Positions 6,666-30,073 of a stretch of DNA of 64,000 bases are shown here, one piece after another. The notes beneath the pieces were generated by a model. That model worked only from the letters and a program-made list of their open reading frames with translations, had not been told where the DNA came from and ran no database searches. Source of the stretch: Nitrospira japonica (lineage in GTDB: Bacteria > Nitrospirota > Thermodesulfovibrionia > UBA6902); the NCBI GenBank assembly GCA_020723105.1, contig DYJL01000001.1, forward strand, positions 198,273-262,272. The letters run 5' to 3'. The position numbers and the translations under genes are program-made. Position 1 is the first letter of the stretch; each line of letters begins with the position of its first letter.

Positions 6666-8762
6666 ATGAAAAAGAAACAGTACATCAAGCATAACAAGTT
6701 CGACAATTTGTATGTGATTCCTTACATACGGGGGAGGCTGGTGTTTGCAGAGATGGCGGCTCGTGCTATTGAAGAAGATAATTTTGAGCAGGTGGTGGCG
6801 GATTTACCGTTCTTCATGAATACGGGAGCACTCTGGGAAAAGGCTGTAAAGTTATTTCCTCAGGTAAGTTCACTGCTCATTAAGAGAAACGATGATACGT
6901 TTGCGGTCTTTCCCTTTGTCCCTAATGATGCTGCCTGCATGTCGCTTGCTGCTGTTAAGCTGCTGAAGGATTGGGGCAGGGATATTGAATTGCGGTGTAT
7001 AGATGATTCACATATCATTCACTATCCGCGCGAATCCCTTGTTCAGCCGGTTATCAGGATGCGGGATGATCAATTTGTTTTCACAGAGGGCCTCGATGAA
7101 TATTACAATGCCATGTATGCTCAGCTTGAGTCTTCACTGAGCGAAGTGACAGAGGACCAGCGCTTATTCAATGAATACAGGGCAATCCTTGTGAGTGAAC
7201 GGATCAAAGGATGTATGGCCGGAGGCAAAAAGACCCTTTTTGTATGTGAGTACAGGCTCTGGTGGCAAATACAGAAAACACTGAATGCGTCCCATCCAAA
7301 ACCCGTTCACTATTATGCCCAGAAATGGAAGGATGTACAGGCAGCACACGTCCTTAGTGATCCGATTGATCTCTGGAAGCGCGGGGCGATGGATGATTCA
7401 ACGACTATAGTGAAGCAGTTCTATGACAGATTTCAGTCCGCTTCTTTAAAGACATTTGACAAGCTTGATGAAATTGCCGCATTGATCAAAAATCACTTCA
7501 AGGTGGAGTCACAGAGAAGGCGGGGCTGTTCATCGATCAGAAAGACCATCTTATTTTACCAGTACCTGCAGAACCGGGTTGCAGCAGATCTACGCATTAC
7601 GCCTCTTGTTATCCGGCATCTTTATGACAGCGCCCATTCATGCATCGGGAGGCAGTATGCAAAAACGCTGGCTGTGAAATGTCTTGAGTATCCTTATTCA
7701 GGACAAGACAGTGTTCAGCGCTTTATTGTGATCGGGCAAAATTCAGTTACCATGGGTACAGAGGGTTTCGATATCCCCCATTCAGCGAAAAGACTTTTTC
7801 TCTATACAGGCACTGATCAGTATTCATATGATCATTTTCATGATGACCTGTCCTGGGCTGTAGACAGAAATACCATGCTCGACGATTTCTTCAATAACCT
7901 CAGCGACAGTGAAAAGAATGGTCTGTCAAATTACACCGGCTTCAAATGGGAGATCAGAAGGGACTTCAAGCTCATTGAGAGTGTATGCAGTGATGCTCGA
8001 GAGAGGATCATGCGGGAGCAGTATAAAGAAAAAAACATGAGGAGCTGGGGCTCAATGGGGGATGGGATAGAATGGAAGGCGACGATCGCGTCAAGGGCCA
8101 GCGGAGAGGATTCGGTATACATAAGAAAGAGAAGCATGAACAGAAATAACGGCAAAAAACTTAATGAGTTCACACCAGTGATATTTATATTTACGGATGA
8201 CATGAAAGGACATGTAGTGAAGCATCTGGAAGAAGGTAATGAGGCTTATCATTACTATGCTTCGGAAGAAAAGGATTTTATTGATTTCAGAAAGATGAAG
8301 GTTGATTGTGTCCATTATGCGCTTATGACCTATCCGGAAGAGAAAGTTGTCTATCCGAAGCATATCTTCAGGTGTGATCTGTCATCCCTTGCGCTCATGT
8401 ATACGAGAGGGTTGTTAAAGGAGCAGAGGTTCAAACAGCTCATAAAAAGACCTGAGAGATATTTGTGCCGTACATTTCCGCAGCTCGACACAGAGATCAA
8501 GAACTTTCCATTATCTGAGATCGGCGTTGCGTGGGGCTTGAAATACGCTGAAGAGTCTGTTCTGGTCATTGCGAAGGACGGATGGAGATCTTCAGAGGAG
8601 CTGGCAGAGTTTGCCGAAAATAAAAAAACGCGTATCATGCATCAGCCATTGTCGCGGTTCAGCCCTGACGTGATAGAGCGGCTCAGAAAATTATACCTAA
8701 TATCGACCGACCTGGAGTACCATCCCGGCCGCGACAGTATTGTGAAGAGGTTTGTGGATTAG
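6666..8762 (+). CDS. Uncharacterised 698-aa protein, paralog A of a tandem family
   Basis: Shares N-terminal (MKKKQYIK..NLYVIPYIRGRLVFAE), internal (KTLFVCEYRLW; FYQYL.NR; FTPV.FIFTDD) and C-terminal (GVAWGLKYAEE..IAKDGW) blocks with ORFs 8899..10995 and 14487..16586. Confidence 0.7.
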   Translation: MKKKQYIKHNKFDNLYVIPYIRGRLVFAEMAARAIEEDNFEQVVADLPFFMNTGALWEKAVKLFPQVSSLLIKRNDDTFAVFPFVPNDAACMSLAAVKLLKDWGRDIELRCIDDSHIIHYPRESLVQPVIRMRDDQFVFTEGLDEYYNAMYAQLESSLSEVTEDQRLFNEYRAILVSERIKGCMAGGKKTLFVCEYRLWWQIQKTLNASHPKPVHYYAQKWKDVQAAHVLSDPIDLWKRGAMDDSTTIVKQFYDRFQSASLKTFDKLDEIAALIKNHFKVESQRRRGCSSIRKTILFYQYLQNRVAADLRITPLVIRHLYDSAHSCIGRQYAKTLAVKCLEYPYSGQDSVQRFIVIGQNSVTMGTEGFDIPHSAKRLFLYTGTDQYSYDHFHDDLSWAVDRNTMLDDFFNNLSDSEKNGLSNYTGFKWEIRRDFKLIESVCSDARERIMREQYKEKNMRSWGSMGDGIEWKATIASRASGEDSVYIRKRSMNRNNGKKLNEFTPVIFIFTDDMKGHVVKHLEEGNEAYHYYASEEKDFIDFRKMKVDCVHYALMTYPEEKVVYPKHIFRCDLSSLALMYTRGLLKEQRFKQLIKRPERYLCRTFPQLDTEIKNFPLSEIGVAWGLKYAEESVLVIAKDGWRSSEELAEFAENKKTRIMHQPLSRFSPDVIERLRKLYLISTDLEYHPGRDSIVKRFVD

Positions 8763-8898: not shown

Positions 8899-10995
8899 AT
8901 GAAAAAGAAACAATACATCAGGCTGACTGGATTTGAGAACTTGTATGTGATCCCTTACGTTCGAGGCCGGCTGGTGTTTGCGGAGCTTGTGGCCCGTGCG
9001 ATAGAGGAGGATGGGTTTGAGCAGGTTATAGTTGACCTTCCATTTTTTCTGAATAAAGGAGGTGTATGGGAAGAGGCGGTGAAACAGTTTCCTCATGTAA
9101 GTTCACTATATTTCAGAATAGAAGACGGCCGCTTTGCAGCGATCCTCTTTACCCCATCTGATGCAGTATCCACTGCGCTCTCGTCTATTCAGATCCTCAG
9201 GGAATGGGGAAACAGCATTGACCTTCAGTGTATCGATGATTCACGGGTAATTCATTATCCCAAAGGGAGCCTGGCCTTTCCGGACGTCAATGTGGGCGAT
9301 GACTACTCTGTATTTATCCAGGGACTGGCTGAATATTTTAACTGCCTCTACGATCAGCTCGATGGTGAATGGAAAGAGGTCAGCAAAGATCAGAGGTTCT
9401 TCAATGAGTACCGGGCAGGTCTTATCAGCGACCGGCTCAGGGGTTATCTGAGGGGCGGGAAGAAGACTCTCTTTGTGTGTGAATACAGGCTGTGGTGGCT
9501 TGCAAGTAAGATGTTTATCAATGAGCGTCCTGTTCCGGAGCACTATTTTTCTCATCCCTGGAAAGACGTCAAGGCAGTCCTTGTGGTTGATTCCCCTCTC
9601 AAATTATGGGTGAAGGGGGCCCTTGATGATTACCCTGCTGTGGTTTATGAATTTTATAATAATTTAAGAAAGGGAATCACCGCGTCGTTTGATAAACTTG
9701 CAGCCGCAGAGACTATTCTCAACCGATCATTCCATCATGACCGTGATCACAATGTCGATGGAGCTTCTTTGCGCAGGGTCATCATTTTTTACCAATATCT
9801 CAGGAACAGGCTGCTCAGTGAATGCCGCCTGACGCCTCTGGTGCTCCGGCACCTCTACGATGCGGCATATTCCTGTCTTGGGAAAAAAATGGCAAACAGT
9901 ATCACAAAGAATCTGCTTTTCTATCCGCAGGGTAAACATAACAGGAAGAAAAACCTGAGCATCAGGGAGGACAGCAGTATAGAGAACGATCATCCGGATG
10001 ACATCAGGAAGCTTTCAAAAGGGTTGTCCTCTATGAGTGGTGAAAATAAATTGCCTATGGATACATTGTATGACGGATACCGTAAACCGGTAGAAGAACT
10101 GCAGATCATTAGCAGGCTTTACCCAAGGCTGGAGAGCAATATTTTAACATCTGAGGGGGAATGGATAGGTATAACCTGGTCGATCAAGGCGGATTATTAT
10201 CAATACGAGCTTGCCGCTATTAAACTGAGAAATGTGCTGGCAGGAAGAGATCAGCGGCGCAGGATAATAAAAAGCAGTGGTTCAATACGAAATGGCATCC
10301 ACTGGAAAGCTACTATAAACGCCCGCGCATTGAAAGAAGACACTTTGTATGTTAAGCACAAATACCGGCAGAAGAGACAGAAAAGAAATAAGCTTGACGA
10401 ATTTACTCCGGTCACCTTTATTTTTACCGACGATTTCAGGGTACACTGGTACAGGGAAATATACTCATCCAACAGATCGCGGAGATACCTCGACCTGAAC
10501 CCGTATACGTCCTTGCCGAATGGCTATCCACCTCCTGATCTGGTCATTAATGCTCTATACAGTCTTTATGATATGAAAGAACTGAGCGGGGGACATATTG
10601 TTAAACGGGCAGTCTCTTCCATTACACTCCTGTATAACAAGAGGGTTGTCGATGATGCCCGATATGATGCTATCAGCAGCAGGCGTGACCGGTTCCCTGT
10701 TCGCTGCGGTGCCATCACGGACACTGAACTCATATCCTTTTCCATACCTGAAAAGGGCATCGCCTGGGCAGTCAAATACGCAGAACATACAGTGGTAGTC
10801 GCAGCAAAACCCGGATGGAAACCGTCGCAAAGCCTTGCCGAATTCAGCAGGCAAAGAAATATCGAGATCGCCCACGTGCCCCTGTCGGTATTTCAGAAAG
10901 AATTTATAGGCCGACTGAAGACCATGTACTTCACCTCAACAGCAATAAAGAGACGGCCTGACAGGGATGAGATTGTGGGGAGGTTTATTGAGTGA
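8899..10995 (+). CDS. Uncharacterised 698-aa protein, paralog B
   Basis: Same conserved blocks as paralog A. Conserved upstream element including the palindrome AGCTTTCAAGCT. Confidence 0.7.
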   Translation: MKKKQYIRLTGFENLYVIPYVRGRLVFAELVARAIEEDGFEQVIVDLPFFLNKGGVWEEAVKQFPHVSSLYFRIEDGRFAAILFTPSDAVSTALSSIQILREWGNSIDLQCIDDSRVIHYPKGSLAFPDVNVGDDYSVFIQGLAEYFNCLYDQLDGEWKEVSKDQRFFNEYRAGLISDRLRGYLRGGKKTLFVCEYRLWWLASKMFINERPVPEHYFSHPWKDVKAVLVVDSPLKLWVKGALDDYPAVVYEFYNNLRKGITASFDKLAAAETILNRSFHHDRDHNVDGASLRRVIIFYQYLRNRLLSECRLTPLVLRHLYDAAYSCLGKKMANSITKNLLFYPQGKHNRKKNLSIREDSSIENDHPDDIRKLSKGLSSMSGENKLPMDTLYDGYRKPVEELQIISRLYPRLESNILTSEGEWIGITWSIKADYYQYELAAIKLRNVLAGRDQRRRIIKSSGSIRNGIHWKATINARALKEDTLYVKHKYRQKRQKRNKLDEFTPVTFIFTDDFRVHWYREIYSSNRSRRYLDLNPYTSLPNGYPPPDLVINALYSLYDMKELSGGHIVKRAVSSITLLYNKRVVDDARYDAISSRRDRFPVRCGAITDTELISFSIPEKGIAWAVKYAEHTVVVAAKPGWKPSQSLAEFSRQRNIEIAHVPLSVFQKEFIGRLKTMYFTSTAIKRRPDRDEIVGRFIE

Positions 10996-11346: not shown

Positions 11347-13839
11347 GTGAAATCAGACATGTCATTTGATCTTTACTATAAAAAGAATACAAAAGAGCTT
11401 ATAGTTCTTTACAAAGATACGGAAAGGGATGTGGTTTGCTTTATCTCTATTGAAAGGCATCCAACAGCAAAACAGAGGATCGTTGGGGTTGATGACTGGA
11501 AGCAGGTCCTGCCGGAGTTCAGGCCATTCAGCTTTAATAGGGCTTATTCCTGTTTCAGAGATCGAACAATATCTGACAGTTCTGATGAATATGAATACAC
11601 ATATCATAAGAGCGTACTTGACCGCTTTTTTCACGATTCATTAGATCAGACAGAGGTATCACTTCTTGACCGGTACAACATCAACCTGTTTCTAATCCTT
11701 CTCTATATCAGGAAAGCGACGATCAATACTTTGATAGAGAACAATCCTGCGTTAGCGCTTATGCTGATCCATGATTCATGCAATTCATCCCTGCCGTTCG
11801 AATCAGATGAGCTGTGGGCGAACATCAGGGAGACGGCTCAATTAATGCCATCGCAGATCGTAAAGAATCTCTATAACATTAAGACAAGCAGAAAGGCTTC
11901 AGAGATTTTTCAGAAGGTCGATACAAAAGAACTGCCATGTATTGAGCCTCTCCTGCAGCTGATAGAAAGTCTAAGGGATTGCTGGGTCATGGGGATACTT
12001 GAGAATCTCAACAGGATATCTTATGAGGTATTGCTCATAATCATTGAGCGAAAGAACAGGTCTGTGATAAGCGCGGGATTCCTGACCTCTGTGAATGCGT
12101 CATCGGGAAGTCCTGTTTCAGCATCTCATATGCTTCAGTGGCTGCATGAGAACCATGTCACGATCCATTTCCCACTAACAAATATGCGCCACCTGCGCAC
12201 TATATACGAGCATATAGTGAAGGAGGAAGACCTCCCTGACGTCGTGGATGAATTTAATTCCGGGCCTTTGATCACATGTCAATCAGATCCAGGGCCACAG
12301 AATGATAGTGTCAAAGAACGAGATCCCATTCTAGAAGTTCCCCATAGAATGGAGAAGGCATCAGATATATTGCTCGCAATGCAGCATGATATACTGGGGC
12401 TTGGAAAAAAGACATACCAAAAGCTCCTGGATCTTGAGAAGGATATACCGGTCATTGATAGACCGGCTGCTGTGCTTAAGGCTGTATCCGTCACAAAGGA
12501 ATTCTTTCTTCTTAAGGAAAGAAAGATAACGCACCTGCTCGAAACATATGATCAATCAAAGGCATTCAACAGCATCGGCAATTCCGAACTTATCAATGAA
12601 CAGTTTCCGGAGCTCGAAAGACTGATCGATCCCGAATTTCTTAGTGAGTATGTGGCATCTGCTGACAGTGATAACTATAGCAGGCGGCTGCGTGGACACG
12701 CCAGAGCATTGAACCGCCACAGGCTGCTTCATGAAATTATTATGGATGAGATCAGAGCTGTAATTAAATGCAGCCAGGCCAAATCCATGACGATCAAGGA
12801 ACTGAAGAGGGTGATAGCTGCAACAGCGCTTCATGATTATAGAAATAAAGATGTACTGCAGGCATTGAAACTCGCAATGGAAATGAATAATCCCATTCTC
12901 AGGGGAAACGCCGTTGCGGAGCTTTTGTTTACTCGCATACCAGCATATATAAGATCACATTTTACGGATGATCCGAAGGTCATTGTCTCCCTGAGGCAGC
13001 GCCTGCTTTCAAAAATATCAAAGGTCAAGGGGCCTCCAAATTTAAAAATAGCGCTGTTCCATCTGGCGCCCAGATCAAACACCCGGAAGAAGGATGATTT
13101 CATCGCAATGATGAACCGGCTACTCTCATTCATCGAGAAAACTGAGATCGTTGATGAAGAATCAAAGATCTCGGTCCGGAGTTTTATTCAGAATGTGACA
13201 GGAGAGATCAGACGTCTAGATTCTATTTACAAAAAACTGTTCCTGACTGAAAAGGAACTTCAGGACGTTTATGGACTGTACAGGCCGAACAACAGACTGG
13301 TCACATGCAATATGCAGCATATAGAGAGGATCATATATGAACACTGCGATATACAGAAACTGTATATGTATCCATGCAAGGATTATCTGGATCTCGAAAA
13401 ATACCGCTGGTCTCATGATTGCAGCAAGGACACGTTGGGAGTAAACCAGCTCAGGACCCCTCAGTTCTTTAATGTCAGGTTATTCAAAAATGACAAGGAA
13501 TATTGCGGGAACATATATATGCTCCAGATGGAATGCGATTCGAGGATTTATCTCCTTGTCGATCGTATCCAGACAGCAAGTTTTGACACGAGGTATGTGA
13601 TGTTCTACGACACCCTGAAGGACGCCTTCCAAAAGATGTTCCGCGACCTTTCCTTTAATGAGATATTACTGCCGGACATAAATGTTTCTAACAATGCATC
13701 ACTTAATAAATTGTTCCATGACTCAAAAAAGAAATATATCAAAAAGAAGGTCAGCTTTGATCTGCATGACGATATGAGACGTAATTTTGAGTGCCTTAGA
13801 AGCGATTCGTTTCATGTTTTATACTCAAAAACGAGTTAG
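11347..13839 (+). CDS. Hypothetical 830-aa protein
   Basis: Long ORF between paralogs B and C. No recognisable motifs. Confidence 0.55.
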   Translation: MKSDMSFDLYYKKNTKELIVLYKDTERDVVCFISIERHPTAKQRIVGVDDWKQVLPEFRPFSFNRAYSCFRDRTISDSSDEYEYTYHKSVLDRFFHDSLDQTEVSLLDRYNINLFLILLYIRKATINTLIENNPALALMLIHDSCNSSLPFESDELWANIRETAQLMPSQIVKNLYNIKTSRKASEIFQKVDTKELPCIEPLLQLIESLRDCWVMGILENLNRISYEVLLIIIERKNRSVISAGFLTSVNASSGSPVSASHMLQWLHENHVTIHFPLTNMRHLRTIYEHIVKEEDLPDVVDEFNSGPLITCQSDPGPQNDSVKERDPILEVPHRMEKASDILLAMQHDILGLGKKTYQKLLDLEKDIPVIDRPAAVLKAVSVTKEFFLLKERKITHLLETYDQSKAFNSIGNSELINEQFPELERLIDPEFLSEYVASADSDNYSRRLRGHARALNRHRLLHEIIMDEIRAVIKCSQAKSMTIKELKRVIAATALHDYRNKDVLQALKLAMEMNNPILRGNAVAELLFTRIPAYIRSHFTDDPKVIVSLRQRLLSKISKVKGPPNLKIALFHLAPRSNTRKKDDFIAMMNRLLSFIEKTEIVDEESKISVRSFIQNVTGEIRRLDSIYKKLFLTEKELQDVYGLYRPNNRLVTCNMQHIERIIYEHCDIQKLYMYPCKDYLDLEKYRWSHDCSKDTLGVNQLRTPQFFNVRLFKNDKEYCGNIYMLQMECDSRIYLLVDRIQTASFDTRYVMFYDTLKDAFQKMFRDLSFNEILLPDINVSNNASLNKLFHDSKKKYIKKKVSFDLHDDMRRNFECLRSDSFHVLYSKTS

Positions 13840-14486: not shown

Positions 14487-16586
14487 ATGAATAATAAACA
14501 ATACATCAAACTGACAGGATTCGACAATTTGTACGTGATCCCCTACATACGTGGCAGGCTGGTGTTTGCGGAGCTGGCGGCGAGGGCGCTTGAAGAGGAT
14601 CAGTTTGAACGTGTGGTGGTGGATTTCCCGTTCTTTATGAACAATGACAACCTTCTTGAAAAAGCCTCACAAATGCTGCCTTATGCAAGCTCACTGCTAC
14701 TGAAGAAAAAAGATGGCACTTTTGTTTCCATCCCGTTTGTGCCGAATGACGCGGCCTGCATCACTGTAGCAGCTGTGCAGTCGTTAAAGAAAGACGGGAT
14801 ATCCATTGAGCTTAAATGCATTGATGACTCTCAGGTCTTCAATTATCCGCAGGAGAGTTTAATGCAGTCCGAAATAAATTTCACTGATGACTATTTCGTG
14901 TTTACAGATGGCCTGGAGAATTTCTTTGGGCCTCTGTACATGCAGCTTGATCAGTCCTTGAGAGAGTGCTCCAGGGACCAGCGTTTCTTTAGTGAATACA
15001 GGGCCGGTATTATCGCCGAACGTCTGGCAGGGCTCCTCCGACAGGGGAGTAAGACGCTTTTCGTGTGCGAGTACCGGCTCTGGTCTTTAGTCTCAAGCAT
15101 GCTTGAGGTGGGATCAGTTAGAAGAGGGAACGGTTTTCATCTTTTATGGAAGGACCTCAAGGGCGCGATGGTCTATGAAGATCCCTATTATTTCTGGGCG
15201 CATGGTCTGCTGGATGATTATCCGTTCGCGGTGGAACAGTTCTATAACAAGTTCAGGCTCGGCAGTGTCCGCATGTTCGACAAACTCAAATGCATTGAGG
15301 AGCTTGTTAAGAATTCAATCCACAGGTGCGCTGGAAAGGAGAAGGACAGTTTATCGATACGCAGGCTTATTTCTTTTTATGGGTATCTTGGCACGATGGT
15401 CACAGGTGCCCGTCGCTTTACGCCCCAGCCGCTTATACACCTTTATGACTCGGCGAATTCATGTCTCGGAAAGAGATTTGCGAAGTATATTGCAAAACAG
15501 TTCATGAAATACCCTATCCCTGACAGACAAAGGATCCAGGGCTTTTTAAATATTAAAGAAGGACAGATCGTTACATTACATAAGAAGTTCAATATCCCTG
15601 ACCTGTCGGAGTACCGTTATTTCAATACCGGGGGTACAGAATATTCATTCGACACACTGCAGGATGGCGATCACTCACCTGAAGATCTGAAGAATTTTAT
15701 CTTTAAGCTCGATCCATCGTTAGACAATAAGACCATCAAATCACTTGGTAATAACTCTTTTATGAACTGGGCTGTTCAGTCGGACTATTATATGCATGAG
15801 ACAGCGTGTGGAAAGTTGCGTGACATAATAAACAGAGAGCGCCTTCACGAAACTGCTAAAAAGAGTATGGGCCCGATGGGAAAGGGGATCCACTGGAAAA
15901 GGACGATCAGTTCAAAAGCGCTGGGCGAGGACAACATCTATATCAGATTGAAAAGCAACGTAAAAAAAGCCCTGAAGAACAGGATAGATGAATATACCCC
16001 GATAACATTTATTTTTACAGATGATTTTTGTAATCATGGAAGCAGTACAATCCATGATTCCAATATTACCAACAGGAACATTGAACTTGGTAATTCTGCG
16101 TTCTCAGATAAAAGTGATCCACCCCCGGATCATGTTTACTCAGTTTTCCATACGTTCAGTGGTGGAACTATATATTATGACGGGCACGTGGAAAGAAGAC
16201 AGATTTCCTCAATAACATTTTTATATACCCGTCATACCATGGGTTTACAGAGATATGCCGCTATCATGAAGAGGCCTGAAAGATTTCAGTGCCGGATCTC
16301 TCCCGGGTCTGATCAAGAGGTCCGTAATTTCCCCCTGCCGGAAACCGGTATCGCATGGGCTGTTAAATATGCTGAACATACAGTTATTATCGCAGCTGTC
16401 AACAGCTGGAAGCCGTCAGATACGCTGAGAGAATTTGCGAGGTCAAAAGGGGTAAAGATCCATACGATTCCTCTTTCGAGCTTTCAGCAGGATTTTATAG
16501 AACGTCTGAGAAGCCTTTATTTCACATCGACGCAGGTGAAGACGCATCCTGACGTGGACAGAATAGTGGAGAGGTGTATTGAATAA
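14487..16586 (+). CDS. Uncharacterised 699-aa protein, paralog C
   Basis: Conserved blocks as in paralogs A and B. Conserved 5' leader. Confidence 0.7.
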   Translation: MNNKQYIKLTGFDNLYVIPYIRGRLVFAELAARALEEDQFERVVVDFPFFMNNDNLLEKASQMLPYASSLLLKKKDGTFVSIPFVPNDAACITVAAVQSLKKDGISIELKCIDDSQVFNYPQESLMQSEINFTDDYFVFTDGLENFFGPLYMQLDQSLRECSRDQRFFSEYRAGIIAERLAGLLRQGSKTLFVCEYRLWSLVSSMLEVGSVRRGNGFHLLWKDLKGAMVYEDPYYFWAHGLLDDYPFAVEQFYNKFRLGSVRMFDKLKCIEELVKNSIHRCAGKEKDSLSIRRLISFYGYLGTMVTGARRFTPQPLIHLYDSANSCLGKRFAKYIAKQFMKYPIPDRQRIQGFLNIKEGQIVTLHKKFNIPDLSEYRYFNTGGTEYSFDTLQDGDHSPEDLKNFIFKLDPSLDNKTIKSLGNNSFMNWAVQSDYYMHETACGKLRDIINRERLHETAKKSMGPMGKGIHWKRTISSKALGEDNIYIRLKSNVKKALKNRIDEYTPITFIFTDDFCNHGSSTIHDSNITNRNIELGNSAFSDKSDPPPDHVYSVFHTFSGGTIYYDGHVERRQISSITFLYTRHTMGLQRYAAIMKRPERFQCRISPGSDQEVRNFPLPETGIAWAVKYAEHTVIIAAVNSWKPSDTLREFARSKGVKIHTIPLSSFQQDFIERLRSLYFTSTQVKTHPDVDRIVERCIE

Positions 16587-17167: not shown

Positions 17168-17567
17168 GAGACTGATAAGATTAGAAGGTCCATAAAGTTA
17201 GAAAGTTGGAATATTATTACAATTTAGTTGATTGAAAAACCTAATGAACTGTTTAACTTTATAAACATGTCCACCCAAGATATTGTATAGAATACTCCAA
17301 TCTTCATCTAATTCTAGTGACATGTGGTAATTTGTGGACTTTAGTGGACATAGTGTTTGCAGAAGCGATTCCGTCAAAACAATGGCACGAAGATCTTTGT
17401 AAGATTTATAAAAATAAAAAATATGGAGTCAGTAGTAAGGAGTCAGGATGAAAGAATAAAGGAAACTATTCTGAATTCTGACTCCTTAATTCACTTTTTC
17501 TTAATGTCTTCTTTTGAAGGCCTTCTGGAGTCTGTTTACCCGGATTAGCATAAGGGCATAGAATATT

Positions 17568-17816
17568 ATGAAAGATTTAAATATGAGGAAGGACTTTAGC
17601 AGATTTGTGGGATCGCGGATAAGGTCCTTCAGGGAACAGGCGGGTTTGACCCAGATGCAGCTTGCGTTCATGTCGGACCTGGACCGGTCTTTCATACAGA
17701 AGGTTGAGCACGGCAGGCAGTCGATATCATTTGAGAATATGTGTGAGATAGCGAAATGTTTGAAGCGTCCGTTGTCTGATTTTGTACCATTAGTAAAAGA
17801 GGAAGCCGAAGGATGA
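17568..17816 (+). CDS. XRE-family helix-turn-helix transcriptional regulator
   Basis: GLTQMQLAFMSDLDRSFIQKVEHGRQSISFENMCEIAKCL is a Cro/C1-type HTH. Confidence 0.7.
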   Translation: MKDLNMRKDFSRFVGSRIRSFREQAGLTQMQLAFMSDLDRSFIQKVEHGRQSISFENMCEIAKCLKRPLSDFVPLVKEEAEG

Positions 17817-17849
17817 CAAAGTAGTCAGGACGATTGGAAAAGAACGATA

Positions 17850-19013
17850 ATGAATTTAAAGGTAAACATACACCAAAAACTTCTATATCGGGTATATGGG
17901 AATTCACTTGCAGTTATTATGAACGCAAAAGAAAACAGCGTGACCTTATTGCAGAATGAGCCTCTTGAATTATGGAAACAGATCCTAAGTAGAAATAACA
18001 TTGATAAAAGTTATTATCCCAAACTCAAACAGTTAGCTGATCTGGGACTTGTTGAAATAGAAGGGGCGATTAAAAACCAGCACAGTTCTGGAGTAAATGA
18101 TCGATCTGTTCAGGAAGTGGATCTGGGGGCTGTTAACTACTGGGCCTTTAAAAATCTTATTCCCCTGAGTGGGCATTTTGAATTGACGAGTAGATGTAAT
18201 TTAAGATGCCGGCATTGCTACTGTATCTATACGGATAAAGATTCTTTAGATACCAATAAAATTATCACGATATTGGATGATCTCCATGAGAGCGGGACCT
18301 TCGGATTGGTTTTGACCGGGGGAGAAATATTTGGCAGAGAGGATATCCTTGATATTTTAAAATATCTGAATGAAAAGAAATTTGTATTGAGATTGAATAC
18401 GAACGGGGTGTTGATCGATGAGAAGATCGTGAAAGAGATGGAAGGACTTTCAAATATTTATAGAATACATGTAAGCCTTTATAGCTCTAAGCCTGAAGTT
18501 CATGACATGATCACAAGGATGGAGGGCTCTTTTCAGAAGACATTAAATGCCATACGACTTTTAAAAGAAGCAGGATTTGGCATTCGTATCAACTGCTCTC
18601 TTATGCAATCCAATGCAGACTCCTATAAAGAGATAAAGACTGAAATAGGAGACAAGCTTAATATTCCCGTGCATTATGATCCGTTCATTTTTCCAAAAGA
18701 TAATGGAAAGATCGAAAACATGTATGAAATGTTTGACGATGATCAGATCAAGGATTATGAAACGTTTAACAAGAAAGAGCCGTCCGGGAAAAAGCCAAAG
18801 CTTTGTAAAGCGGCTTTCTCATTTTTTTCAATCTGTGAAGATGGAAGTATTTATCCCTGCCTGAAGATGAAAAAATATTATGACAAGCCTCTCGCTAATT
18901 TACAGGAATCCTCTTTCAAAGAGATCTGGTATAACTCGGCAGAGATAAAAAAGGTGAGGAATGTACTCAATGATAAACTGAGAGATTGCAATGTATGCGA
19001 TTTAAGCATATAA
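17850..19013 (+). CDS. Radical SAM / SPASM-domain peptide-modifying enzyme with an N-terminal PqqD-like RRE
   Basis: CNLRCRHCY (CxxxCxxC) at about residue 115. The N-terminal 100 aa (LYRVYGNSLAVIMNAKENSVTLLQNEPLELWKQIL) look like a RiPP recognition element. A C-terminal Cys cluster (CKAAF..CEDGSIYPC...CNVC) is consistent with SPASM. Confidence 0.65.
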   Translation: MNLKVNIHQKLLYRVYGNSLAVIMNAKENSVTLLQNEPLELWKQILSRNNIDKSYYPKLKQLADLGLVEIEGAIKNQHSSGVNDRSVQEVDLGAVNYWAFKNLIPLSGHFELTSRCNLRCRHCYCIYTDKDSLDTNKIITILDDLHESGTFGLVLTGGEIFGREDILDILKYLNEKKFVLRLNTNGVLIDEKIVKEMEGLSNIYRIHVSLYSSKPEVHDMITRMEGSFQKTLNAIRLLKEAGFGIRINCSLMQSNADSYKEIKTEIGDKLNIPVHYDPFIFPKDNGKIENMYEMFDDDQIKDYETFNKKEPSGKKPKLCKAAFSFFSICEDGSIYPCLKMKKYYDKPLANLQESSFKEIWYNSAEIKKVRNVLNDKLRDCNVCDLSI

Positions 19014-19025
19014 CAGGAGGTAAAA

Positions 19026-19259
19026 ATGGAGATCAACCTAAAAATAAAGTATTGTTTTGATCAGATCTTAAAGGAAATGGGCACTGAGAAAGCTGCTGAT
19101 ATTATGGTCTTAACAGCTAAAGACAGGTTTTTTGTGGGGTACGGTTGTGAATATTCAGAATATAGTGATATGCCTCCCGATCTAAGGGCCAATAAACTCT
19201 ATCTGTACAAAGCGCAACAGAATTCTTCAGGAAATATTTCTATATGTAAGTGCAGATGA
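19026..19259 (+). CDS. Small 77-aa protein coupled to the rSAM gene (candidate precursor or partner peptide)
   Basis: Strong SD AGGAGG lies 7 nt upstream, 12 nt after the rSAM stop. Contains Cys at positions 10, 41, 74 and 76, ending ...SGNISICKCR. Confidence 0.4.
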   Translation: MEINLKIKYCFDQILKEMGTEKAADIMVLTAKDRFFVGYGCEYSEYSDMPPDLRANKLYLYKAQQNSSGNISICKCR

Positions 19260-19304: not shown

Positions 19305-20435
19305 ATGAATAGCAGGGATACAAGGGACATTGTGATTGCGGTTGGTTTGCTTTCAGGGGTCGGGATCCTGATGGTTTTCAGCTCGACAGCTGTCATGTCG
19401 ATGCAGAGTAACGGGCGCGGGGCTGCCTATCTTTGGAAACACCTTTTTACTGTCTGCGTCGGAGCAGTTGTAATGCTCACGCTGTCAATGGGCGACTATA
19501 AAAAAGCCAGATCATGTGTTCCCCATCTGATCGCTGTATCATCACTGCTGTTGCTTCTTGTATTTGTCCCCGGGATCGGTATCTCCGCAAACGGGGCGCA
19601 GAGATGGATACGGGTATGGCCGACCACACTGACCTTTCAGCCCACAGAACTGCTAAAGCTGGTAATGGTCATTTCCCTCGCGGACTATATGGATAAATAC
19701 GTTTACAGGATGAAGGACTACAGGTACGGGATCTGTATTCCCATCGTCATATTGTTGGTGTTTCAGACGATCATCATGCTGCAGCCGGATTTTGGCGCGG
19801 TCATGAGTCTGGCAATACTTGCGATAGGCCTTTTAATGCTCGGTGGCGCCAGAATGAGATACTTAAGCGCTATGATACTGGCATCGATACCGGCAGTATA
19901 CATACTTATCAGGATCGCTCCATACAGGCTTAAACGGTTTACATGTTTTCTCGACCCATGGCAAGACTCTTTAGGCTGCGGATATCAGCTAATCCAGTCG
20001 CTCATCGCGATCAATAACGGAAAGATCCTTGGCATGGGTATTGGAAACAGCAAACAGAAGCTCGGATTCCTGCCGGAGACCCATACTGATTTTATATTTT
20101 CCATCATAGGCGAAGAATTCGGTCTTATAATAAGCTTGTGTGTGGTAGGTCTATTTGTCTGGCTCTTTATAAAAGGAATTAAGGTCGCCTCACGGACTGA
20201 TGATCAGTTCAGCTACTACCTTGCGATAGGACTCTCGCTGATGATCGGTGTCCAGGCCATGATAAACTTTGCCGTTACCATGGGATTGCTGCCTACAAAA
20301 GGCCTACCCCTGCCGTTTATCAGCTACGGTGGTTCAGCCCTTGTTGTCAATATGGCTGCTGCGGGCATTCTGATAAATATATCACGGCAGAATGAGAGGA
20401 GAAGTGTATATTCGAAAACAAGTTTCTCCTTATAA
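19305..20435 (+). CDS. FtsW/RodA/SpoVE (SEDS) family peptidoglycan polymerase
   Basis: About 10 TM segments. The block GAQRWIRVWPTTLTFQPTELLKLVMVI is typical of SEDS proteins. Confidence 0.75.
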   Translation: MNSRDTRDIVIAVGLLSGVGILMVFSSTAVMSMQSNGRGAAYLWKHLFTVCVGAVVMLTLSMGDYKKARSCVPHLIAVSSLLLLLVFVPGIGISANGAQRWIRVWPTTLTFQPTELLKLVMVISLADYMDKYVYRMKDYRYGICIPIVILLVFQTIIMLQPDFGAVMSLAILAIGLLMLGGARMRYLSAMILASIPAVYILIRIAPYRLKRFTCFLDPWQDSLGCGYQLIQSLIAINNGKILGMGIGNSKQKLGFLPETHTDFIFSIIGEEFGLIISLCVVGLFVWLFIKGIKVASRTDDQFSYYLAIGLSLMIGVQAMINFAVTMGLLPTKGLPLPFISYGGSALVVNMAAAGILINISRQNERRSVYSKTSFSL

Positions 20436-21035: not shown

Positions 21036-21860
21036 ATGGATACAGGGACAGAACATACCTCAGATGAACTGCTTGATTCTGCGTGGGGATTATGTGTTCC
21101 AGTTGGAAGGATACTTGGGATCGATATTAGAATACATGCTCTTGTACTTTTGGGAATATTGCTTGAGTATAATAAACTGTCATGCCTTAAGAATATTTTG
21201 TGTCTGTATGCGTTCTTACTTTTCTATTCAGGTTTGTTTCTGTCCATCCTTGCACACGAGTTGGGACATGCTTTGGCCACAAAGTTCTTCGGGAATATAG
21301 TCAAAGGGATAATTGTTTTCCCACCCCTCGGAGGAATGGCATTCATCCAGGTAGATAACGAGAGACCGATCAGAAATATTTTGATCTATCTGTCAGGACC
21401 GGCTGTAAATATTGTTTTGGCCATTATACTGATGTATTCATACAGGCACGCAACCATGGAATATCATTTTCTGATCTACGACGGATTAAAACTTATGATG
21501 TGGGTAAACCTGTTGATAGGACTTGTGAACCTGATTCCCTTCTATCCGCTTGATGGAGGACGCATTCTTCATAATCTGATATTGTTGTTTAGATACGGCG
21601 AAAGGAAAGCAAACATCTTAACCTTATGTTTTTCATCTGTGTGCTTTGTTGCAATAGTAATATATACATTAAAGGAAGGATATTACTTTAACCTGATTAT
21701 TGCGATGTTACTGATGATCGTTTCGTATTTAGTTTTAACAGAAAAGCCTGCCGGATCTCAGGAGGTTTTCGAAAAAGTGAGTCTTGACCCAAAGTTGGTG
21801 CATTTTCGCGAAGGCGAAGGACCAGAGATACTTAATGAATATAAGGTGTTGCAAGAGTAA
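21036..21860 (+). CDS. M50-family (site-2 protease-like) membrane metalloprotease
   Basis: HELGHAL zinc-binding motif within a TM helix. Multiple TM segments. LDGG motif later in the protein. Confidence 0.7.
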   Translation: MDTGTEHTSDELLDSAWGLCVPVGRILGIDIRIHALVLLGILLEYNKLSCLKNILCLYAFLLFYSGLFLSILAHELGHALATKFFGNIVKGIIVFPPLGGMAFIQVDNERPIRNILIYLSGPAVNIVLAIILMYSYRHATMEYHFLIYDGLKLMMWVNLLIGLVNLIPFYPLDGGRILHNLILLFRYGERKANILTLCFSSVCFVAIVIYTLKEGYYFNLIIAMLLMIVSYLVLTEKPAGSQEVFEKVSLDPKLVHFREGEGPEILNEYKVLQE

Positions 21861-25081: not shown

Positions 25082-26584
25082 ATGGTTGATCAACCAGGTA
25101 ACAATACAGTAGCAGCGAGAGAATGCTTAAATAATTCAGAACTGTCATCAACCCTTTTGGGTCCTATTTTCAGGCTTCCCAAGGCAGGAGTTATCCGGCC
25201 CGGCATCAAAGCTTTAAAGAAAAGCTGTACTGCCGATGATCAGAAGATTTATAGCAGAATGCTTGAAGAAGGCGCTACATGGGATGAAATTGACCGCTCT
25301 CTTGGAACGGACAAGAATGGTAAATCGAAATTGATCCCTGAAAACGTCGATTACTTCACTATACGTCCGGAGGACTGTAAGAATTCTGATGACGCAAGAA
25401 GGCTTCATGACTTTTATGCCGATCCTGACGGGAAAATAAGAAGCCTTCCTGTCTGGTTCTCTATCAATGAATGGTATAACATCATCCCACACGGACTGAG
25501 AGCTTTCGGCAAAACGCAGGGAATCCGCTACCATAGCGATCTCATTGAAAAACAGGATGCTGATGGCAGAAAAGAGTTTACTCGTGTTTGCAGGTTCCCT
25601 CTTAACGTTGAGCCCGGAAAAAGGATTTACGGCGGTAGAAGATGCGGTGAAAGGCCGTGTGATCCCAATAATTGCCCTGAATACCAGTCCGGGAGCTGCA
25701 AATTCGGAGGGGTCATCTGCTGCCACATTCCCGGCGTCAAAGGTGTAGGAGTATGGCTTATACCGACAACATCATGGTATTCCCTATCAAACATCAAGAG
25801 CACGTTCGAAATTGTAGCAAACCTGACACGGGGAAAGATTGCAGGACTTGTTGAACCCTCTGCTGACTCTCCAAGCCGTTTTAAGACAGTGTTTCGTATC
25901 CGGAAGGTATCGGAGACTGTATCCATGATAGATCATAAATCAGGCAATCCGACAAGGGTTGAGCAGGATCTTATTCATCTGGACGTAGATATAGATCTGA
26001 CAGAGTTGGCTGTTTCTTATAACGGTCATAAACTGATCACAACCGGTTTCTCATCCGCAGCCTTGCTGAATGGCAAAAACAACGGAACAGGTTCCCATTC
26101 ATCGCTATTAAACAAACCATCGGATAATAGCATGGACAAGTCTGAAACTAATGCCACTACGGGATCAAAAGAAGATAAAAATCCTGAGCCGGGAAACACA
26201 AACAAGACACTTGGTGAGGATGCAGGAAAACTTTTTGGGCTGCTCGCTGCTAAATTCGATACAAATGAGGGAATTAAGGCTGAACTGGAAAGACTGACAA
26301 ACAGGAACAGCTTTTTCGAACTAACCGATAATGAGGCAAAGACAGCCATTGATGCTCTCACAAAGTCGGCCAAGAAGCAATGCGATCCGCCTTCAGATAA
26401 CGGCAATGAGCCGGATGAGGTAAAAGAACTTAAAACCATTCTCACGGCACTGTGTGAAGGGGAAGACGACATAGCGGTCAAGCTCAAGGAATTAACCGGC
26501 GTTGATTCATTTGAGAAGGTTACAAAAGAAATGGCAATAAGGGCCATTGAAAAAATGACTGTAAACACCCTGAATGACTTTTAA
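25082..26584 (+). CDS. Hypothetical 500-aa protein with a Cys-rich centre and a low-complexity Ser/Asn/Lys/Glu-rich C-terminal half
   Basis: Cys cluster CGERPCDPNNCPEYQSGSCKFGGVICCH. It is the first gene of a co-directional module with DUF736 and a Toprim primase. Confidence 0.5.
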   Translation: MVDQPGNNTVAARECLNNSELSSTLLGPIFRLPKAGVIRPGIKALKKSCTADDQKIYSRMLEEGATWDEIDRSLGTDKNGKSKLIPENVDYFTIRPEDCKNSDDARRLHDFYADPDGKIRSLPVWFSINEWYNIIPHGLRAFGKTQGIRYHSDLIEKQDADGRKEFTRVCRFPLNVEPGKRIYGGRRCGERPCDPNNCPEYQSGSCKFGGVICCHIPGVKGVGVWLIPTTSWYSLSNIKSTFEIVANLTRGKIAGLVEPSADSPSRFKTVFRIRKVSETVSMIDHKSGNPTRVEQDLIHLDVDIDLTELAVSYNGHKLITTGFSSAALLNGKNNGTGSHSSLLNKPSDNSMDKSETNATTGSKEDKNPEPGNTNKTLGEDAGKLFGLLAAKFDTNEGIKAELERLTNRNSFFELTDNEAKTAIDALTKSAKKQCDPPSDNGNEPDEVKELKTILTALCEGEDDIAVKLKELTGVDSFEKVTKEMAIRAIEKMTVNTLNDF

Positions 26585-27030: not shown

Positions 27031-28035
27031 ATGGAAAGGAAAATAATTGAAAAAGCAAAAAACATCAACTTAATGTCGTACATCGAGCTCGTGTTAGGGC
27101 TTGTTCCGCAAAGACGTGTATCCGGCGGCACTTTTTACTTCTCGCCGTTCAGGCAGGAGAGTGAAGCTTCATTGCATGTCTCGTTATTAAACGGGATCTG
27201 GCAGTGGTATGACCACGGGAGCGCAAACCGTGATGGCGGAGACACAGTTAAGTTTGTGCTCAAACTCAGGCAATGTTCTTTTAAGGAGGCAGTTGATGAT
27301 CTGCTCAGGTTTGACGGATCAAGCTGTGAGAATGAACAAACACAGCCTGTAAACAGGTCGAAGATTGACACTTCCCGGAATAAGATGAAAAAAATATTCT
27401 GGGCCAGAAAATTCTACAGCCGGCTGCCTAATAATAATGAAAGGCTGATAAGGAGGTACTTTACTGAAAGAAGATTACGATTTTATCCTGAACTGGGCTG
27501 TAAGGTGTATGTCCACTTCAAAGATCAGTTGAGCTACGTTACTTTTCCGCTTCCCAATCCTGAAAAACTCAGAGGGTTGGAGCTCAGGGAGATATGCGGT
27601 CTTGATAAAGAGATAGGTTTAACTGAAGAAAGAAAGAATCGTAAGAATTACGGCACAAAGACCTTGTGGGTATTTAAAAGAGACACATCCCGGATACTGG
27701 TTGCGGAATCAATACTTGATGCGCTTGCCGGAGAGGTCATTCTCAACGATTACAACATATCACTTGCAGCCTTAAATGGGGTAGGGCAGGTATCCCAGCT
27801 TAACCCTTTAATTCAAAGTATGAAGCCCCAAAAAATTGTTTTTGCTCCTGACAGGGACATGCCTGGCAGGGAAACTGAGTTAATCGCTAAAGAAATTTTC
27901 AAAAGAAATAACGTTGAGTATGAAGTTCTTGAGACAAAAGAGAAGGACTTGTTTAGGGCACTTCATTTAGGGAAAGGAGTAAACAATGCTTACGACAGCA
28001 AATCGCAAACTGAATATCTCAAAGAATGCTCTTGA
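27031..28035 (+). CDS. Primase-like protein: degenerate CHC2-type N-terminal domain plus C-terminal Toprim domain
   Basis: N-terminus ASLHVSLLNGIWQWYDHGSANRDGGDTVKFV resembles the DnaG zinc-ribbon region but lacks the Cys ligands. The C-terminus has Toprim-like E...DxD (ILVAESILDA ... FAPDRDMPG). Confidence 0.5.
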   Translation: MERKIIEKAKNINLMSYIELVLGLVPQRRVSGGTFYFSPFRQESEASLHVSLLNGIWQWYDHGSANRDGGDTVKFVLKLRQCSFKEAVDDLLRFDGSSCENEQTQPVNRSKIDTSRNKMKKIFWARKFYSRLPNNNERLIRRYFTERRLRFYPELGCKVYVHFKDQLSYVTFPLPNPEKLRGLELREICGLDKEIGLTEERKNRKNYGTKTLWVFKRDTSRILVAESILDALAGEVILNDYNISLAALNGVGQVSQLNPLIQSMKPQKIVFAPDRDMPGRETELIAKEIFKRNNVEYEVLETKEKDLFRALHLGKGVNNAYDSKSQTEYLKECS

Positions 28036-30073
28036 GGTATTAAGGAAGCGTTATCTTAAAAAGGATGACCATGGCAATCCGACGGAAACACCGGAAGATT
28101 TGTTCAGGCGTGTTGCAGAGAACATAGCTCATGCAGACAGCTTCTACGGGGCATCCCCTAAAGAAGTAACACAAACTGCAGAGACATTCTATGATCTTAT
28201 CATGAGCTTGCGGTTCTTACCGAACAGCCCTACGCTTATGAACGCAGGAAGGGAATTACAGCAGCTTTCAGCGTGTTTTGTATTGCCCGTCGGTGATTCG
28301 ATGGAGGAAATTTTCGAGGCTTTAAAGAAGGCCGCTCTGATTCATCAAAGCGGCGGAGGTACGGGATTTTCGTTCAGCAGGCTTCGTCCGAAAGACGATA
28401 TGGTTTCAACAACAAAGGGAAAGGCAAGTGGGCCTATATCTTTTATGGAGGTCTTTGATTCAGCAACGAATACTGTCAAACAGGGTGGGACCCGCAGGGG
28501 CGCAAACATGGGGATTTTGAGAGTGGATCATCAGGACATCTTGGAGTTCATCTCCTGCAAAGGCGAAGAGGGAAGGCTGCAAAATTTCAACATTTCTATA
28601 GCCATAACCAACAGTTTCATGCAGGCGCTAAAGGAAGAAAAGATGTACCGTCTCATAAACCCGCGCACAAAGAAAGTTGTTAAAGAGCTTTCGGCAAGAG
28701 AGGTATTCAACAGGATTGTTGATATGGCATGGAAAAACGGAGAGCCGGGGATTATCTTCATTGACAGGATCAATGAGAAAAATCCCACTCCTCATGCAGG
28801 TGAGATAGAAGCCACTAATCCATGCGGAGAACAGCCTCTTTTGCCATATGAGTCCTGTAATCTTGGTTCCATCAATCTTTCACTGATGGTTGATAGTGCC
28901 TCCGTAAACTGGAAGTTACTTGAGGATACTATAAAAACTGCGGTGCATTTTCTGGATAACGTCATAGACATGAACAAGTACCCACTGTCTCAGATAGAGA
29001 CCGTCACCAAACTCAACAGGAAGATCGGACTCGGGGTTATGGGATGGGCTGATATGCTTCTTAAAATGAGAATTAAGTATAGCTCAGATGAGGCAGTCAA
29101 GCTTGCTGAAAAGGTAATGAGTTTCATTCAGGCTGTAGCATATGATGCATCTGCTGAACTTGCAATGAAAAGAGGGGCGTTCCCCAACTGGAAGGGAAGC
29201 ATCCACAACGGAGATAACGGTAGAAAACTCAGAAATGCCTCAATCACAACCATTGCCCCTACGGGAAGCATCAGCATAATTGCTGGTTGCTCTTCAGGCA
29301 TTGAGCCTGTCTTTGCATGGCAGCATAAAAGCAAACAGGTGGATACGGAGTTTACATGGGAACATCCCATATGGGCGTTGTATAAGGATAAGGATTTACT
29401 TCCCGAGTACTTTGTTAAGGCTGACCAGATTCCAACCGAATGGCACGTCAAGATGCAGGCCGCTTTCCAGAGGAACACTGATAATGCCGTCTCAAAAACG
29501 GTAAATCTGCCTAACTCGGCGACCAGAGAGGATGTTGCAAAGACCTATCTGCTGGCGTATGAGTTTGGATGTAAAGGCATCACAGTCTACCGTGATGGAA
29601 GCCGGGAAGAACAGGTTTTGACAACTACAGACAGACAAATTGCAAAGAAAGGCAAGAGCGGGAAGGAGACCTTGCCTGAGGTGATTGATGAGAAAAGGGT
29701 TGTGGTTCCGACAAAAGAAGGTAAATATTACATCCATCTAAGCCATGTTAATGGAACGCCGAAAGAGATATTCGTCACTGTTCCTCCGATTGGCAAATCG
29801 AGGGCGTGGGTTGAATGTATCTCAAGGCTGATATCCATTGCTATGCGAGCCGGAGTTTCCTGCGAGGCTCTTATTGATCAGCTCTATAAGAGCTATTTGC
29901 AGTATGGAGACGTAACATCACCATTGCTGCATATCAATAAAGGTCTGACAAAGGCGCTTGAGTCATTAAACAGAAAGCCCAACTTTGAGATCACATGCAC
30001 TGACTGCGGCGGAGTAATGATTCTGGAAGAAGGATGTATGAAGTGCTACTCATGCGGCGCAAGCGCCTGCTGA
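27986..30073 (+). CDS. nrdJ: Class II (adenosylcobalamin-dependent) ribonucleotide reductase
   Basis: NPCGEQPL active-site motif. C-terminal zinc-ribbon CTDCGGVMILEEGCMKCYSCGASAC. The start overlaps the primase gene end by 50 nt. Confidence 0.85.
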   Translation: MLTTANRKLNISKNALEVLRKRYLKKDDHGNPTETPEDLFRRVAENIAHADSFYGASPKEVTQTAETFYDLIMSLRFLPNSPTLMNAGRELQQLSACFVLPVGDSMEEIFEALKKAALIHQSGGGTGFSFSRLRPKDDMVSTTKGKASGPISFMEVFDSATNTVKQGGTRRGANMGILRVDHQDILEFISCKGEEGRLQNFNISIAITNSFMQALKEEKMYRLINPRTKKVVKELSAREVFNRIVDMAWKNGEPGIIFIDRINEKNPTPHAGEIEATNPCGEQPLLPYESCNLGSINLSLMVDSASVNWKLLEDTIKTAVHFLDNVIDMNKYPLSQIETVTKLNRKIGLGVMGWADMLLKMRIKYSSDEAVKLAEKVMSFIQAVAYDASAELAMKRGAFPNWKGSIHNGDNGRKLRNASITTIAPTGSISIIAGCSSGIEPVFAWQHKSKQVDTEFTWEHPIWALYKDKDLLPEYFVKADQIPTEWHVKMQAAFQRNTDNAVSKTVNLPNSATREDVAKTYLLAYEFGCKGITVYRDGSREEQVLTTTDRQIAKKGKSGKETLPEVIDEKRVVVPTKEGKYYIHLSHVNGTPKEIFVTVPPIGKSRAWVECISRLISIAMRAGVSCEALIDQLYKSYLQYGDVTSPLLHINKGLTKALESLNRKPNFEITCTDCGGVMILEEGCMKCYSCGASAC

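Follow-up and report, generated by a model that had tools for sequence, protein, structure and literature searches.

Much new peptide chemistry is being found with radical S-adenosylmethionine (radical-SAM) enzymes that carry SPASM or Twitch domains and are paired with small peptides. A gene for an enzyme of this kind, directly followed by a gene for a small cysteine-bearing peptide, is located in a 64,000-nucleotide (nt) stretch of Nitrospira japonica DNA (GenBank assembly GCA_020723105.1, contig DYJL01000001.1, positions 198,273 to 262,272 of the forward strand; the whole stretch is here termed the window). The question raised by this locus is whether the two products are a peptide-modifying enzyme and its substrate. 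The initial annotation, made from the sequence letters, had proposed a compact locus of the type known for peptides that are made by the ribosome and modified after translation (RiPPs), comprising an XRE-family regulator, a radical-SAM enzyme with an N-terminal RiPP recognition element (RRE) and a candidate precursor peptide. The comparative analysis presented here confirmed the enzyme and peptide genes as a real, conserved two-gene unit and placed the regulator outside of it. With a probability of roughly 65%, the unit is a self-contained module for RiPP-type peptide modification; it is quite likely that its two products are enzyme and substrate, and thioether formation is put forward tentatively as the chemistry.

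Conservation of the enzyme and peptide genes

The enzyme gene (17850..19013, forward strand, as for all features of the locus unless noted) encodes 387 amino acids (aa) in three domains with Pfam matches to Radical_SAM and SPASM, and ends with a TAA stop codon at 19011-19013. The peptide gene, an open reading frame (ORF) of 77 aa (19026..19259), starts 12 nt later, behind a perfect AGGAGG ribosome binding site (19015..19020) with a 5-nt spacer to the start codon. Re-reading of the sequence bore out the coordinates initially assigned to these two ORFs and to the XRE gene upstream, as well as the 12-nt distance, the ribosome binding site and the end of the peptide (...GCEYSEYSD...SGNISICKCR).

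The peptide gene has a homologue, encoding 62-95 aa, directly 3′ of the enzyme gene in each of the 12 related loci that could be read at the DNA level, namely the window, L001, L002 (Nitrospirota), L003 (Sulfurimonas), L004 (Oscillochloris), L005 (Chloroploca), L006 (Rhabdochromatium), L164, L165, L166, L168 and L169. The distance from the enzyme stop codon to the peptide start codon ranges from 8 to 53 nt in the ten loci for which it was computed, and a gene for 68 or 76 aa occupies the peptide position in two further loci known without DNA. In contrast, the peptide motif was found in 0 of ~157 loci of other radical-SAM enzymes. These negative controls came from scans of genome and metagenome contigs with the enzyme alignment, in which generic radical-SAM patterns dominated; the genome scan yielded three true family loci (L004-L006) and the metagenome scan none. 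In comparison with the closest relative, the ratio of nonsynonymous to synonymous substitution rates (dN/dS) was 0.135 for the peptide gene and 0.174 for the enzyme gene, and the 77-aa ORF is a real gene under purifying selection. By occurrence, negative controls and dN/dS, the pairing is far above chance, and the linkage of enzyme and peptide is obligate across phyla. No other neighbour was conserved beside the two genes across the related loci. The correlation between enzyme and peptide identities (mirror-tree) was modest (rho = 0.34, p = 0.02) and was not used as evidence.

In total, ~58 full-length enzyme homologues with 38-100 % identity were found, the N-terminal 100 residues included. 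Named sources are Nitrospirota metagenome-assembled genomes, Sulfurimonas, Rhabdochromatium marinum, Magnetococcus and Oscillochloris, and the homologue of Candidatus Chloroploca mongolica came from the genome scan. No family copies were found on plasmids or phages. A word-index search with the peptide recovered only 3-14 relatives; hence 1.84 billion representative proteins were searched exhaustively with a profile, which resulted in 37 matches or clusters, all of them small but one (P0153, see below).

Leader and core motifs of the peptide

The alignment of 46 family peptides separates the 77-aa peptide into conserved and variable regions. A leader region (aa 1-32, 19026..19121) with the pattern MxVxxxIxYS(I/L)xD(I/V)LxELG...DI(I/M)V is followed by a first core motif, DRFFVGYGCE (aa 33-42, 19122..19151; family consensus D(K/R)FFxGxGCE). 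After a hypervariable linker without any conserved column (aa 43-69, 19152..19232), which measures 12-35 aa across the family, the second core motif NISIC (aa 70-74; consensus N(I/V)(S/A)(I/V)C) is reached, and a 3-aa tail and the stop codon complete the gene (19233..19259). No variation occurs at F36, G40, C41, E42 or C74, and at least 90 % of the aligned sequences share D33, G38 and N70. An adjacent precursor gene, a conserved leader and a separate core, which together generally characterize RiPP clusters, are present at this locus, with leader binding being predicted only.

The 77-aa product matched no Pfam, NCBIfam or PADLOC family. AlphaFold2 (AF2) modelling of the peptide alone gave no confident fold, with a predicted local distance difference test score (pLDDT) of 56.5 and values <50 in the motif regions; such a prediction is more in line with a substrate peptide than with a partner protein that folds. 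The one large match of the exhaustive search, P0153 (850 aa), was judged to be probably unrelated; its eight DRFTTGAGCDS repeats resemble the first core motif only. These repeats of ~50 aa are arranged in tandem and carry a second cysteine as well (DRFTTGAGCDS...ITACDS), and P0153 is probably a surface repeat protein.

Domain organization of the enzyme

The enzyme belongs to the radical-SAM superfamily, as the Pfam match to Radical_SAM (PF04055; E = 1.1e-21, aa 111-246) lies above the gathering score and the barrel is modelled by AF2 with pLDDT >90; the complete model has a pLDDT of 84.8 and a predicted template modelling score (pTM) of 0.86. The CX3CX2C motif (C116, C120 and C123; 18195..18218), the predicted ligand of the radical-SAM [4Fe-4S] cluster, is invariant in the alignment of 31 members. 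The four other invariant cysteines of this alignment (C319, C337, C380 and C383) are all located in the C-terminal domain, while C329 is not conserved.

About 100 residues with the pattern of a PqqD-like RRE had been described ahead of the radical-SAM core. Their number was confirmed, with CNLRCRHCY starting at C116, and the RRE assignment held in part. AF2 predicts for aa 1-75 (17850..18074) three strands (12-16, 20-25 and 30-34), two helices (36-46 and 53-64) and a short strand (68-70). An hhalign comparison with the N-termini of 11 distant relatives with precomputed PF05402 annotation gave a match of 95.6 % (E = 1.2e-8, 69 columns), with an 18-residue deletion after the first helix. On this alignment and model, the N-terminal domain is best described as an RRE homologue minus one helix (βββ-αα), and the homology is supported, but in an abridged form to which the Pfam PqqD model is silent. 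Foldseek alignments of the enzyme with SuiB and SkfB likewise extend over this domain. A profile search of the Protein Data Bank (PDB) with this domain returned spurious pentatricopeptide-repeat matches only. The leader-binding groove of RREs lies between β3 and the last helix. Both of these elements are kept in the enzyme, and the domain would bind the leader of the peptide.

At the C-terminus, the initial annotation had assigned cysteine clusters typical of SPASM or Twitch domains. A full SPASM domain follows the pattern CX9-15GX4C...CX2CX5CX3C...C, and a Twitch domain binds one cluster. Pfam SPASM matches aa 319-384 of the enzyme (E = 3.6e-8; 34 bits vs a cut-off of 21.5 bits), and alignment and AF2 model place in aa 319-387 (18804..19010) C319, a β-hairpin (326-335), C337, a helix (356-378) and C380-x2-C383. 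The CxxC is located four residues before the C-terminus in every aligned member. The modelled topology agrees with the arrangement that PMC6231123 gives for the Twitch domains of SkfB and BtrN. Because there are four invariant cysteines, because the protein ends 4 aa past the CxxC and because the topology is SkfB/BtrN-like, the domain is of the Twitch type, with cysteines sufficient for one auxiliary cluster, and is not a full SPASM domain. The complete CxxCx5Cx3C of SPASM is present in the distant relatives P0056, P0074 and P0085.

A divergent relative with a kept leader and a different core

The strongest indirect evidence for the assignment of functions to the parts of the pair was obtained from locus L167. 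Its enzyme, P0056, has 40 % identity, the same N-terminal domain and the full SPASM domain. A peptide gene of 75 aa follows, and in an hhalign comparison its leader could be aligned with that of the family (84 %, E = 7.6e-6), the match being confined to the leader columns. The core is different and rich in cysteine (ACCDKTDGAC; ACCDKTDGACWTQM). A leader that is kept while the core is swapped is an organising principle of RiPP pathways. The pattern at L167 suggests that the N-terminal domain reads the leader and that the catalytic domains act on the core. Together with the linkage of the two genes across phyla, it supports the earlier proposal that the 77-aa cysteine-bearing peptide is the substrate of the enzyme.

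Affinities of the enzyme

In a PDB profile search with the enzyme, the best matches were SkfB (2.4e-22), SuiB (5e-12), PqqE (1.4e-11) and CteB (1.3e-9), whereas the anaerobic sulfatase-maturating enzyme anSME reached no more than 2.5e-5. Foldseek ranked SuiB, SkfB and CteB at the top with ~400-430 aligned columns, and the N-terminal domain is therefore covered by these alignments; viperin, anSME and MoaA align across ~300 columns only. Sequence profiles and models hence place the enzyme among the homologues of peptide maturases, and with SkfB, SuiB and CteB as best solved relatives the sactipeptide/ranthipeptide-maturase type of architecture named in the initial annotation is supported. Maturases of this type form thioether bonds from a cysteine sulfur to Cα (sactipeptides) or to Cβ/Cγ (ranthipeptides) in a precursor peptide encoded next to them.

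The NCBIfam comparison yielded AhbD (116 bits), WgkB (113), ScmE (108) and NirJ (101) as best scores, all against cut-offs of 400-650 (650 for WgkB and 400 for ScmE) and mainly within the core. No curated maturase model (AlbA, SkfB, StsB, WgkB, ScmE, GeoRSP and others) reached its cut-off for the window enzyme, with AlbA at 77 vs 850, SkfB (TIGR04403) at 53 vs 300 and StsB at 74 vs 625 bits, and the other 30 enzyme members gave weak matches to the same models with E-values far short of cut-off level. With heme-type and peptide-type models scoring almost alike, the enzyme family appears to form a clade of its own.

The top score of AhbD, with NirJ close to it, raises the alternative that the substrate is a small molecule or cofactor, in the manner of AhbD/NirJ or MoaA, and the peptide an accessory subunit; BtrN and MoaA are examples of small-molecule enzymes that also have Twitch domains (PMC6231123). 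This is very improbable. The AhbD and NirJ matches are restricted to the generic core (aa 110-287) and stay four- to five-fold under their cut-offs, AhbD, NirJ, MoaA, viperin and anSME align over ~300 columns without the N-terminal domain, and that domain is homologous to peptide-binding RREs. The small protein lacks a confident fold, the leader is kept and the core swapped at L167, and conserved genes for heme or molybdopterin are lacking in the vicinity.

Membership in the anSME group is not indicated either. Enzymes of that group have a full SPASM domain with two auxiliary clusters, lack an RRE and act on the sulfatase motif C/S-x-P/A-x-R, whereas the window enzyme has one auxiliary-cluster cysteine set, no sulfatase gene was found and the peptide contains no CxPxR motif. 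A reading as defence system was rejected, as PADLOC gave only generic viperin-core matches for the enzyme and 'control protein' matches for the XRE protein.

Proposed mechanism and fate of the product

From these results we infer how the peptide would be bound and modified by the enzyme, which type of chemistry would take place at which site and what fate and function the product may have. The shortened RRE would dock onto the conserved leader, at about aa 8-32 of the 77-aa peptide. SAM would be cleaved at the cluster held by C116, C120 and C123, and a hydrogen atom would be abstracted from the peptide core, with the single Twitch auxiliary cluster (C319, C337, C380 and C383) assisting as in SkfB. 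The modification would be introduced at or between FxGxGCE and NxxxC, and the likeliest chemistry would be the formation of one or two cysteine-derived thioether cross-links, with a ring closed across the hypervariable linker.

Thioether formation is favoured because SkfB, the closest relative in sequence, is a sactisynthase and shares the layout of RRE, core and Twitch domain, because cysteines are the only residues invariant in both motifs, and because the L167 core is rich in cysteine and E42, N70 and D33 are acceptors of the ranthipeptide type. The same pair could carry out another chemistry, for example a C-C or C-O link via F35/F36 or E42, an epimerisation or an anSME-like oxidation of cysteine, in which case the invariant cysteines would be cluster ligands or handles and not thioether donors. 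In favour of this alternative, enzymes that do not form thioethers are among the closest relatives, such as SuiB (Lys-Trp C-C), PqqE (Glu-Tyr C-C) and the epimerase EpeE, WgkB is the second-best NCBIfam match, and the invariant F36 and E42 are located near C41. In view of the affinity to the thioether synthase SkfB, the cysteine-rich ACCDKTDGAC of L167 and the restriction of invariance in both motifs to cysteine, a different chemistry is considered rather unlikely.

As to what becomes of the product, neither a protease nor an exporter accompanies the pair, and a role within the cell, similar to that of SCIFF or of peptide-derived cofactors, is possible for this reason. A modified small protein or a peptide-derived cofactor retained in the cell (as in the case of PQQ, mycofactocin or SCIFF) instead of a secreted product would agree with the absence of export or leader-cleavage genes from all 14 contexts, with the single peptide copy per locus, and with conservation along the full peptide length without an obvious leader cleavage motif. 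Against this reading, the hypervariable linker and the variable tail contrast with cofactor precursors, which do not change in and around the residues that are processed; pqqBCD- or mftBDEF-type processing genes are absent, and the cassette occurs sporadically, in a pattern suggestive of horizontal transfer, with one copy beside an integrase. An intracellular product is considered rather unlikely; this reading concerns the product fate and overlaps with the explanation favoured here, the modification of the 77-aa peptide by the enzyme.

Several points weigh against the reading as a RiPP-type module. The Pfam PqqD model (PF05402) was absent from 21 of the 21 member N-termini even at E ≤ 10, and the modelled domain has two helices, whereas an RRE in the strict definition is a winged helix-turn-helix of the form βββ-ααα with three (PMC12710340). 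The NCBIfam scores for the heme enzymes AhbD and NirJ are as high as those for peptide maturases, all being far below cut-off. At 62-95 aa the precursor is long, and no more than two of its cysteines are conserved. Finally, no protease, leader peptidase or transporter is conserved beside the pair in 14 contexts, and because of this the release and export of a product are left unexplained.

A more far-reaching proposal, which we regard as speculative, is that the family represents a new class of radical-SAM-modified peptide in which a cross-link joins the two invariant single-cysteine motifs, FxGxGCE with NxxxC, so as to display a hypervariable loop of 12-35 residues. A two-helix mini-RRE and one auxiliary cluster would suffice for this modification, and the unit, which would need no protease or exporter of its own, would be passed on by horizontal transfer between anaerobic and sulfur-cycling bacteria.

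Upstream region and the XRE gene

The gene upstream of the pair (17568..17816) encodes an XRE-family protein of 82 aa with a helix-turn-helix domain of the Cro/C1 type (Pfam HTH_3, E = 2.7e-11, 43.8 bits vs a cut-off of 23; PADLOC 'control protein' models, E ~3e-11). It is missing at the homologous position in L001, the closest relative with 83 % identity, and from the other contexts. The only upstream block shared with L001, of ~60 nt (GGCCTTCTGGAGTCTGTTTACC...GGGCATA.AATATTA; window 17520-17570, L001 about 3555-3625), contains in L001 a promoter-like TTTACC-18-TACAAT directly ahead of the radical-SAM gene. Because the L001 block runs straight into the enzyme gene, the XRE gene is a lineage-specific addition, an accessory regulator outside the conserved module. 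Of the compact locus initially described, the enzyme and peptide part was thus retained and the XRE part was not. The XRE protein would act as a local regulator that was acquired in the lineage of the window alone. In the window, the consensus scan located a promoter-like TTTACC-18 nt-TAGAAT (17535..17564), which is weak evidence alone, as such matches were no more numerous than in shuffled sequences. The XRE start codon ATG follows 4 nt past the -10 hexamer, which suggests a leaderless mRNA.

It had also been considered that a very short ORF within 17170-17560 could be the precursor; in the corresponding alternative weighed here, the 77-aa ORF would be a chance or wrongly called one. Small ORFs do exist in this region (17198-17377 on the reverse strand, 17317-17451 and 17357-17548 on the forward strand). 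Apart from the promoter-like block, the region cannot be aligned even with L001, and the 77-aa gene is present in every family locus, under purifying selection and with a perfect ribosome binding site. The upstream candidates are refuted by this combination, and the chance that one of them is the true precursor is negligible.

Genomic surroundings

The initial annotation had noted neither a peptidase nor a transporter adjacent to the pair. No transporter was found nearby, but a gene for an M50 peptidase, the only peptidase in the vicinity, lies 1.8 kb downstream (21036-21860); relatives do not show it together with the cassette. No terminator was found in the interval from the peptide gene to ftsW, and the locus gave no Rfam match.

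A ftsW/rodA gene adjoins the cassette in three Nitrospirota loci, on either side. The cassette is located upstream of it in the window (19305-20435) and in L001, and downstream of it in L002 (2476-3621). As L002 and the window are otherwise syntenic (LMWPc phosphatase, GH18), either the cassette or ftsW moved locally.

Outside these loci the neighbours differ. In Sulfurimonas L003 (1194-4878) the cassette lies beside genes for a Dam methylase, an S24 peptidase and an integrase and near a prophage-like stretch, in L168 (193-874) beside a Gp49/HTH_37 toxin-antitoxin pair, and in L165 (1159-3112) beside HIRAN with an HsdM_N fragment. Other contexts contain RelA/SpoT or a ferredoxin with LemA. The mobile and defence-type neighbours are consistent with horizontal transfer of the cassette. 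At L167 (1089-3202), a SAM methyltransferase gene adjoins and a Pol-β-like nucleotidyltransferase gene is located upstream.

Further genes of the window were observed in passing. Downstream of a gene for an AAA_5 (MoxR-like) ATPase (5509-6498), three paralogues of 698-699 aa without Pfam family (6666-8762, 8899-10995 and 14487-16586) are 40-44 % identical over their full length. A different ORF of 830 aa without known family (11347-13839) shares 54 % identity with the gene that comes first in L002. An ORF of 500 aa (25082-26584) matches PF18897, a 'recombination directionality factor-like' domain of the Gp3 type, with E = 7.6e-25 and lies upstream of a gene for the ribonucleotide reductase large subunit with a C-terminal TSCPD domain (27986-30073).

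Comparison with known systems

No published description of the enzyme-peptide family was found in a full-text search of a limited literature collection, and no curated Pfam or NCBIfam family covers specifically the enzyme family or the peptide. The pair is an uncharacterised new family within a well-known kind of system, and no current view is overturned by it. The family is compact, as two genes suffice, and rare, given 37 peptide clusters among 1.84 billion representative proteins, and it offers a clear substrate candidate with two sharply defined motifs as a lead for genome mining. Moreover, the shortened recognition domain bears on the question of the minimal RRE needed for leader binding and of why RRE mining based on profiles misses systems.

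Among the closest known systems is the sporulation killing factor of Bacillus subtilis with the sactisynthase SkfB (PDB 6EFN) and its substrate SkfA. SkfB, the best PDB profile match to the enzyme and among the top two by fold, has the same three-domain layout and a Twitch domain with one auxiliary cluster, in which the cysteines are placed equally (one before and one after the hairpin, two after helix α2'), and its substrate is likewise a small cysteine-containing peptide. The two systems differ in that the N-terminal domain of the window enzyme is one helix short, that SkfA has 55 aa with a Cys4-Met12 link in a short core in contrast to 77 aa with two distant single-cysteine motifs, and that the skf operon also has protease/cyclase, ABC transporter and immunity genes, none of which occurs at the window locus.

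CteB/SCIFF and the ranthipeptide systems (PapB, NxxcB and QhpD) likewise combine a radical-SAM and SPASM-type enzyme that carries an RRE (in the window enzyme an abridged, putative one) with a cysteine peptide. SCIFF, too, consists in essence of two genes and has no protease or transporter of its own, and the thioether acceptors of ranthipeptides (Asp, Glu, Asn and Thr) match E42, the near-invariant N70 and D33 of the window peptide. CteB has a full SPASM domain with two auxiliary clusters as compared to one in the window enzyme, and the window peptide has neither the six-cysteine SCIFF pattern nor CxxxD/NxxC repeats, NISIC being N-x3-C.

PqqE/PqqD/PqqA and MftC/MftB/MftA resemble the window pair in the combination of a radical-SAM/SPASM enzyme, a small peptide and a PqqD-type domain without export machinery. 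The corresponding models score far below their cut-offs for the window enzyme (PqqE 80 vs 381 bits, MftC 78 vs 265 bits), the window peptide is much longer and has a segment that is hypervariable, its enzyme carries the recognition domain as a fusion and in shortened form, and pqqBCD or mftBDEF are missing. AhbD (heme b) and NirJ (heme d1) give the highest NCBIfam bits among these comparisons (116 and 101, with cut-offs of 500 and 515), but they have no N-terminal peptide-binding domain or partner peptide, and heme genes are not found near the window locus. The distinctive features of the family relative to these systems are the two-helix recognition domain, the Twitch domain and the two-motif peptide with its hypervariable loop.

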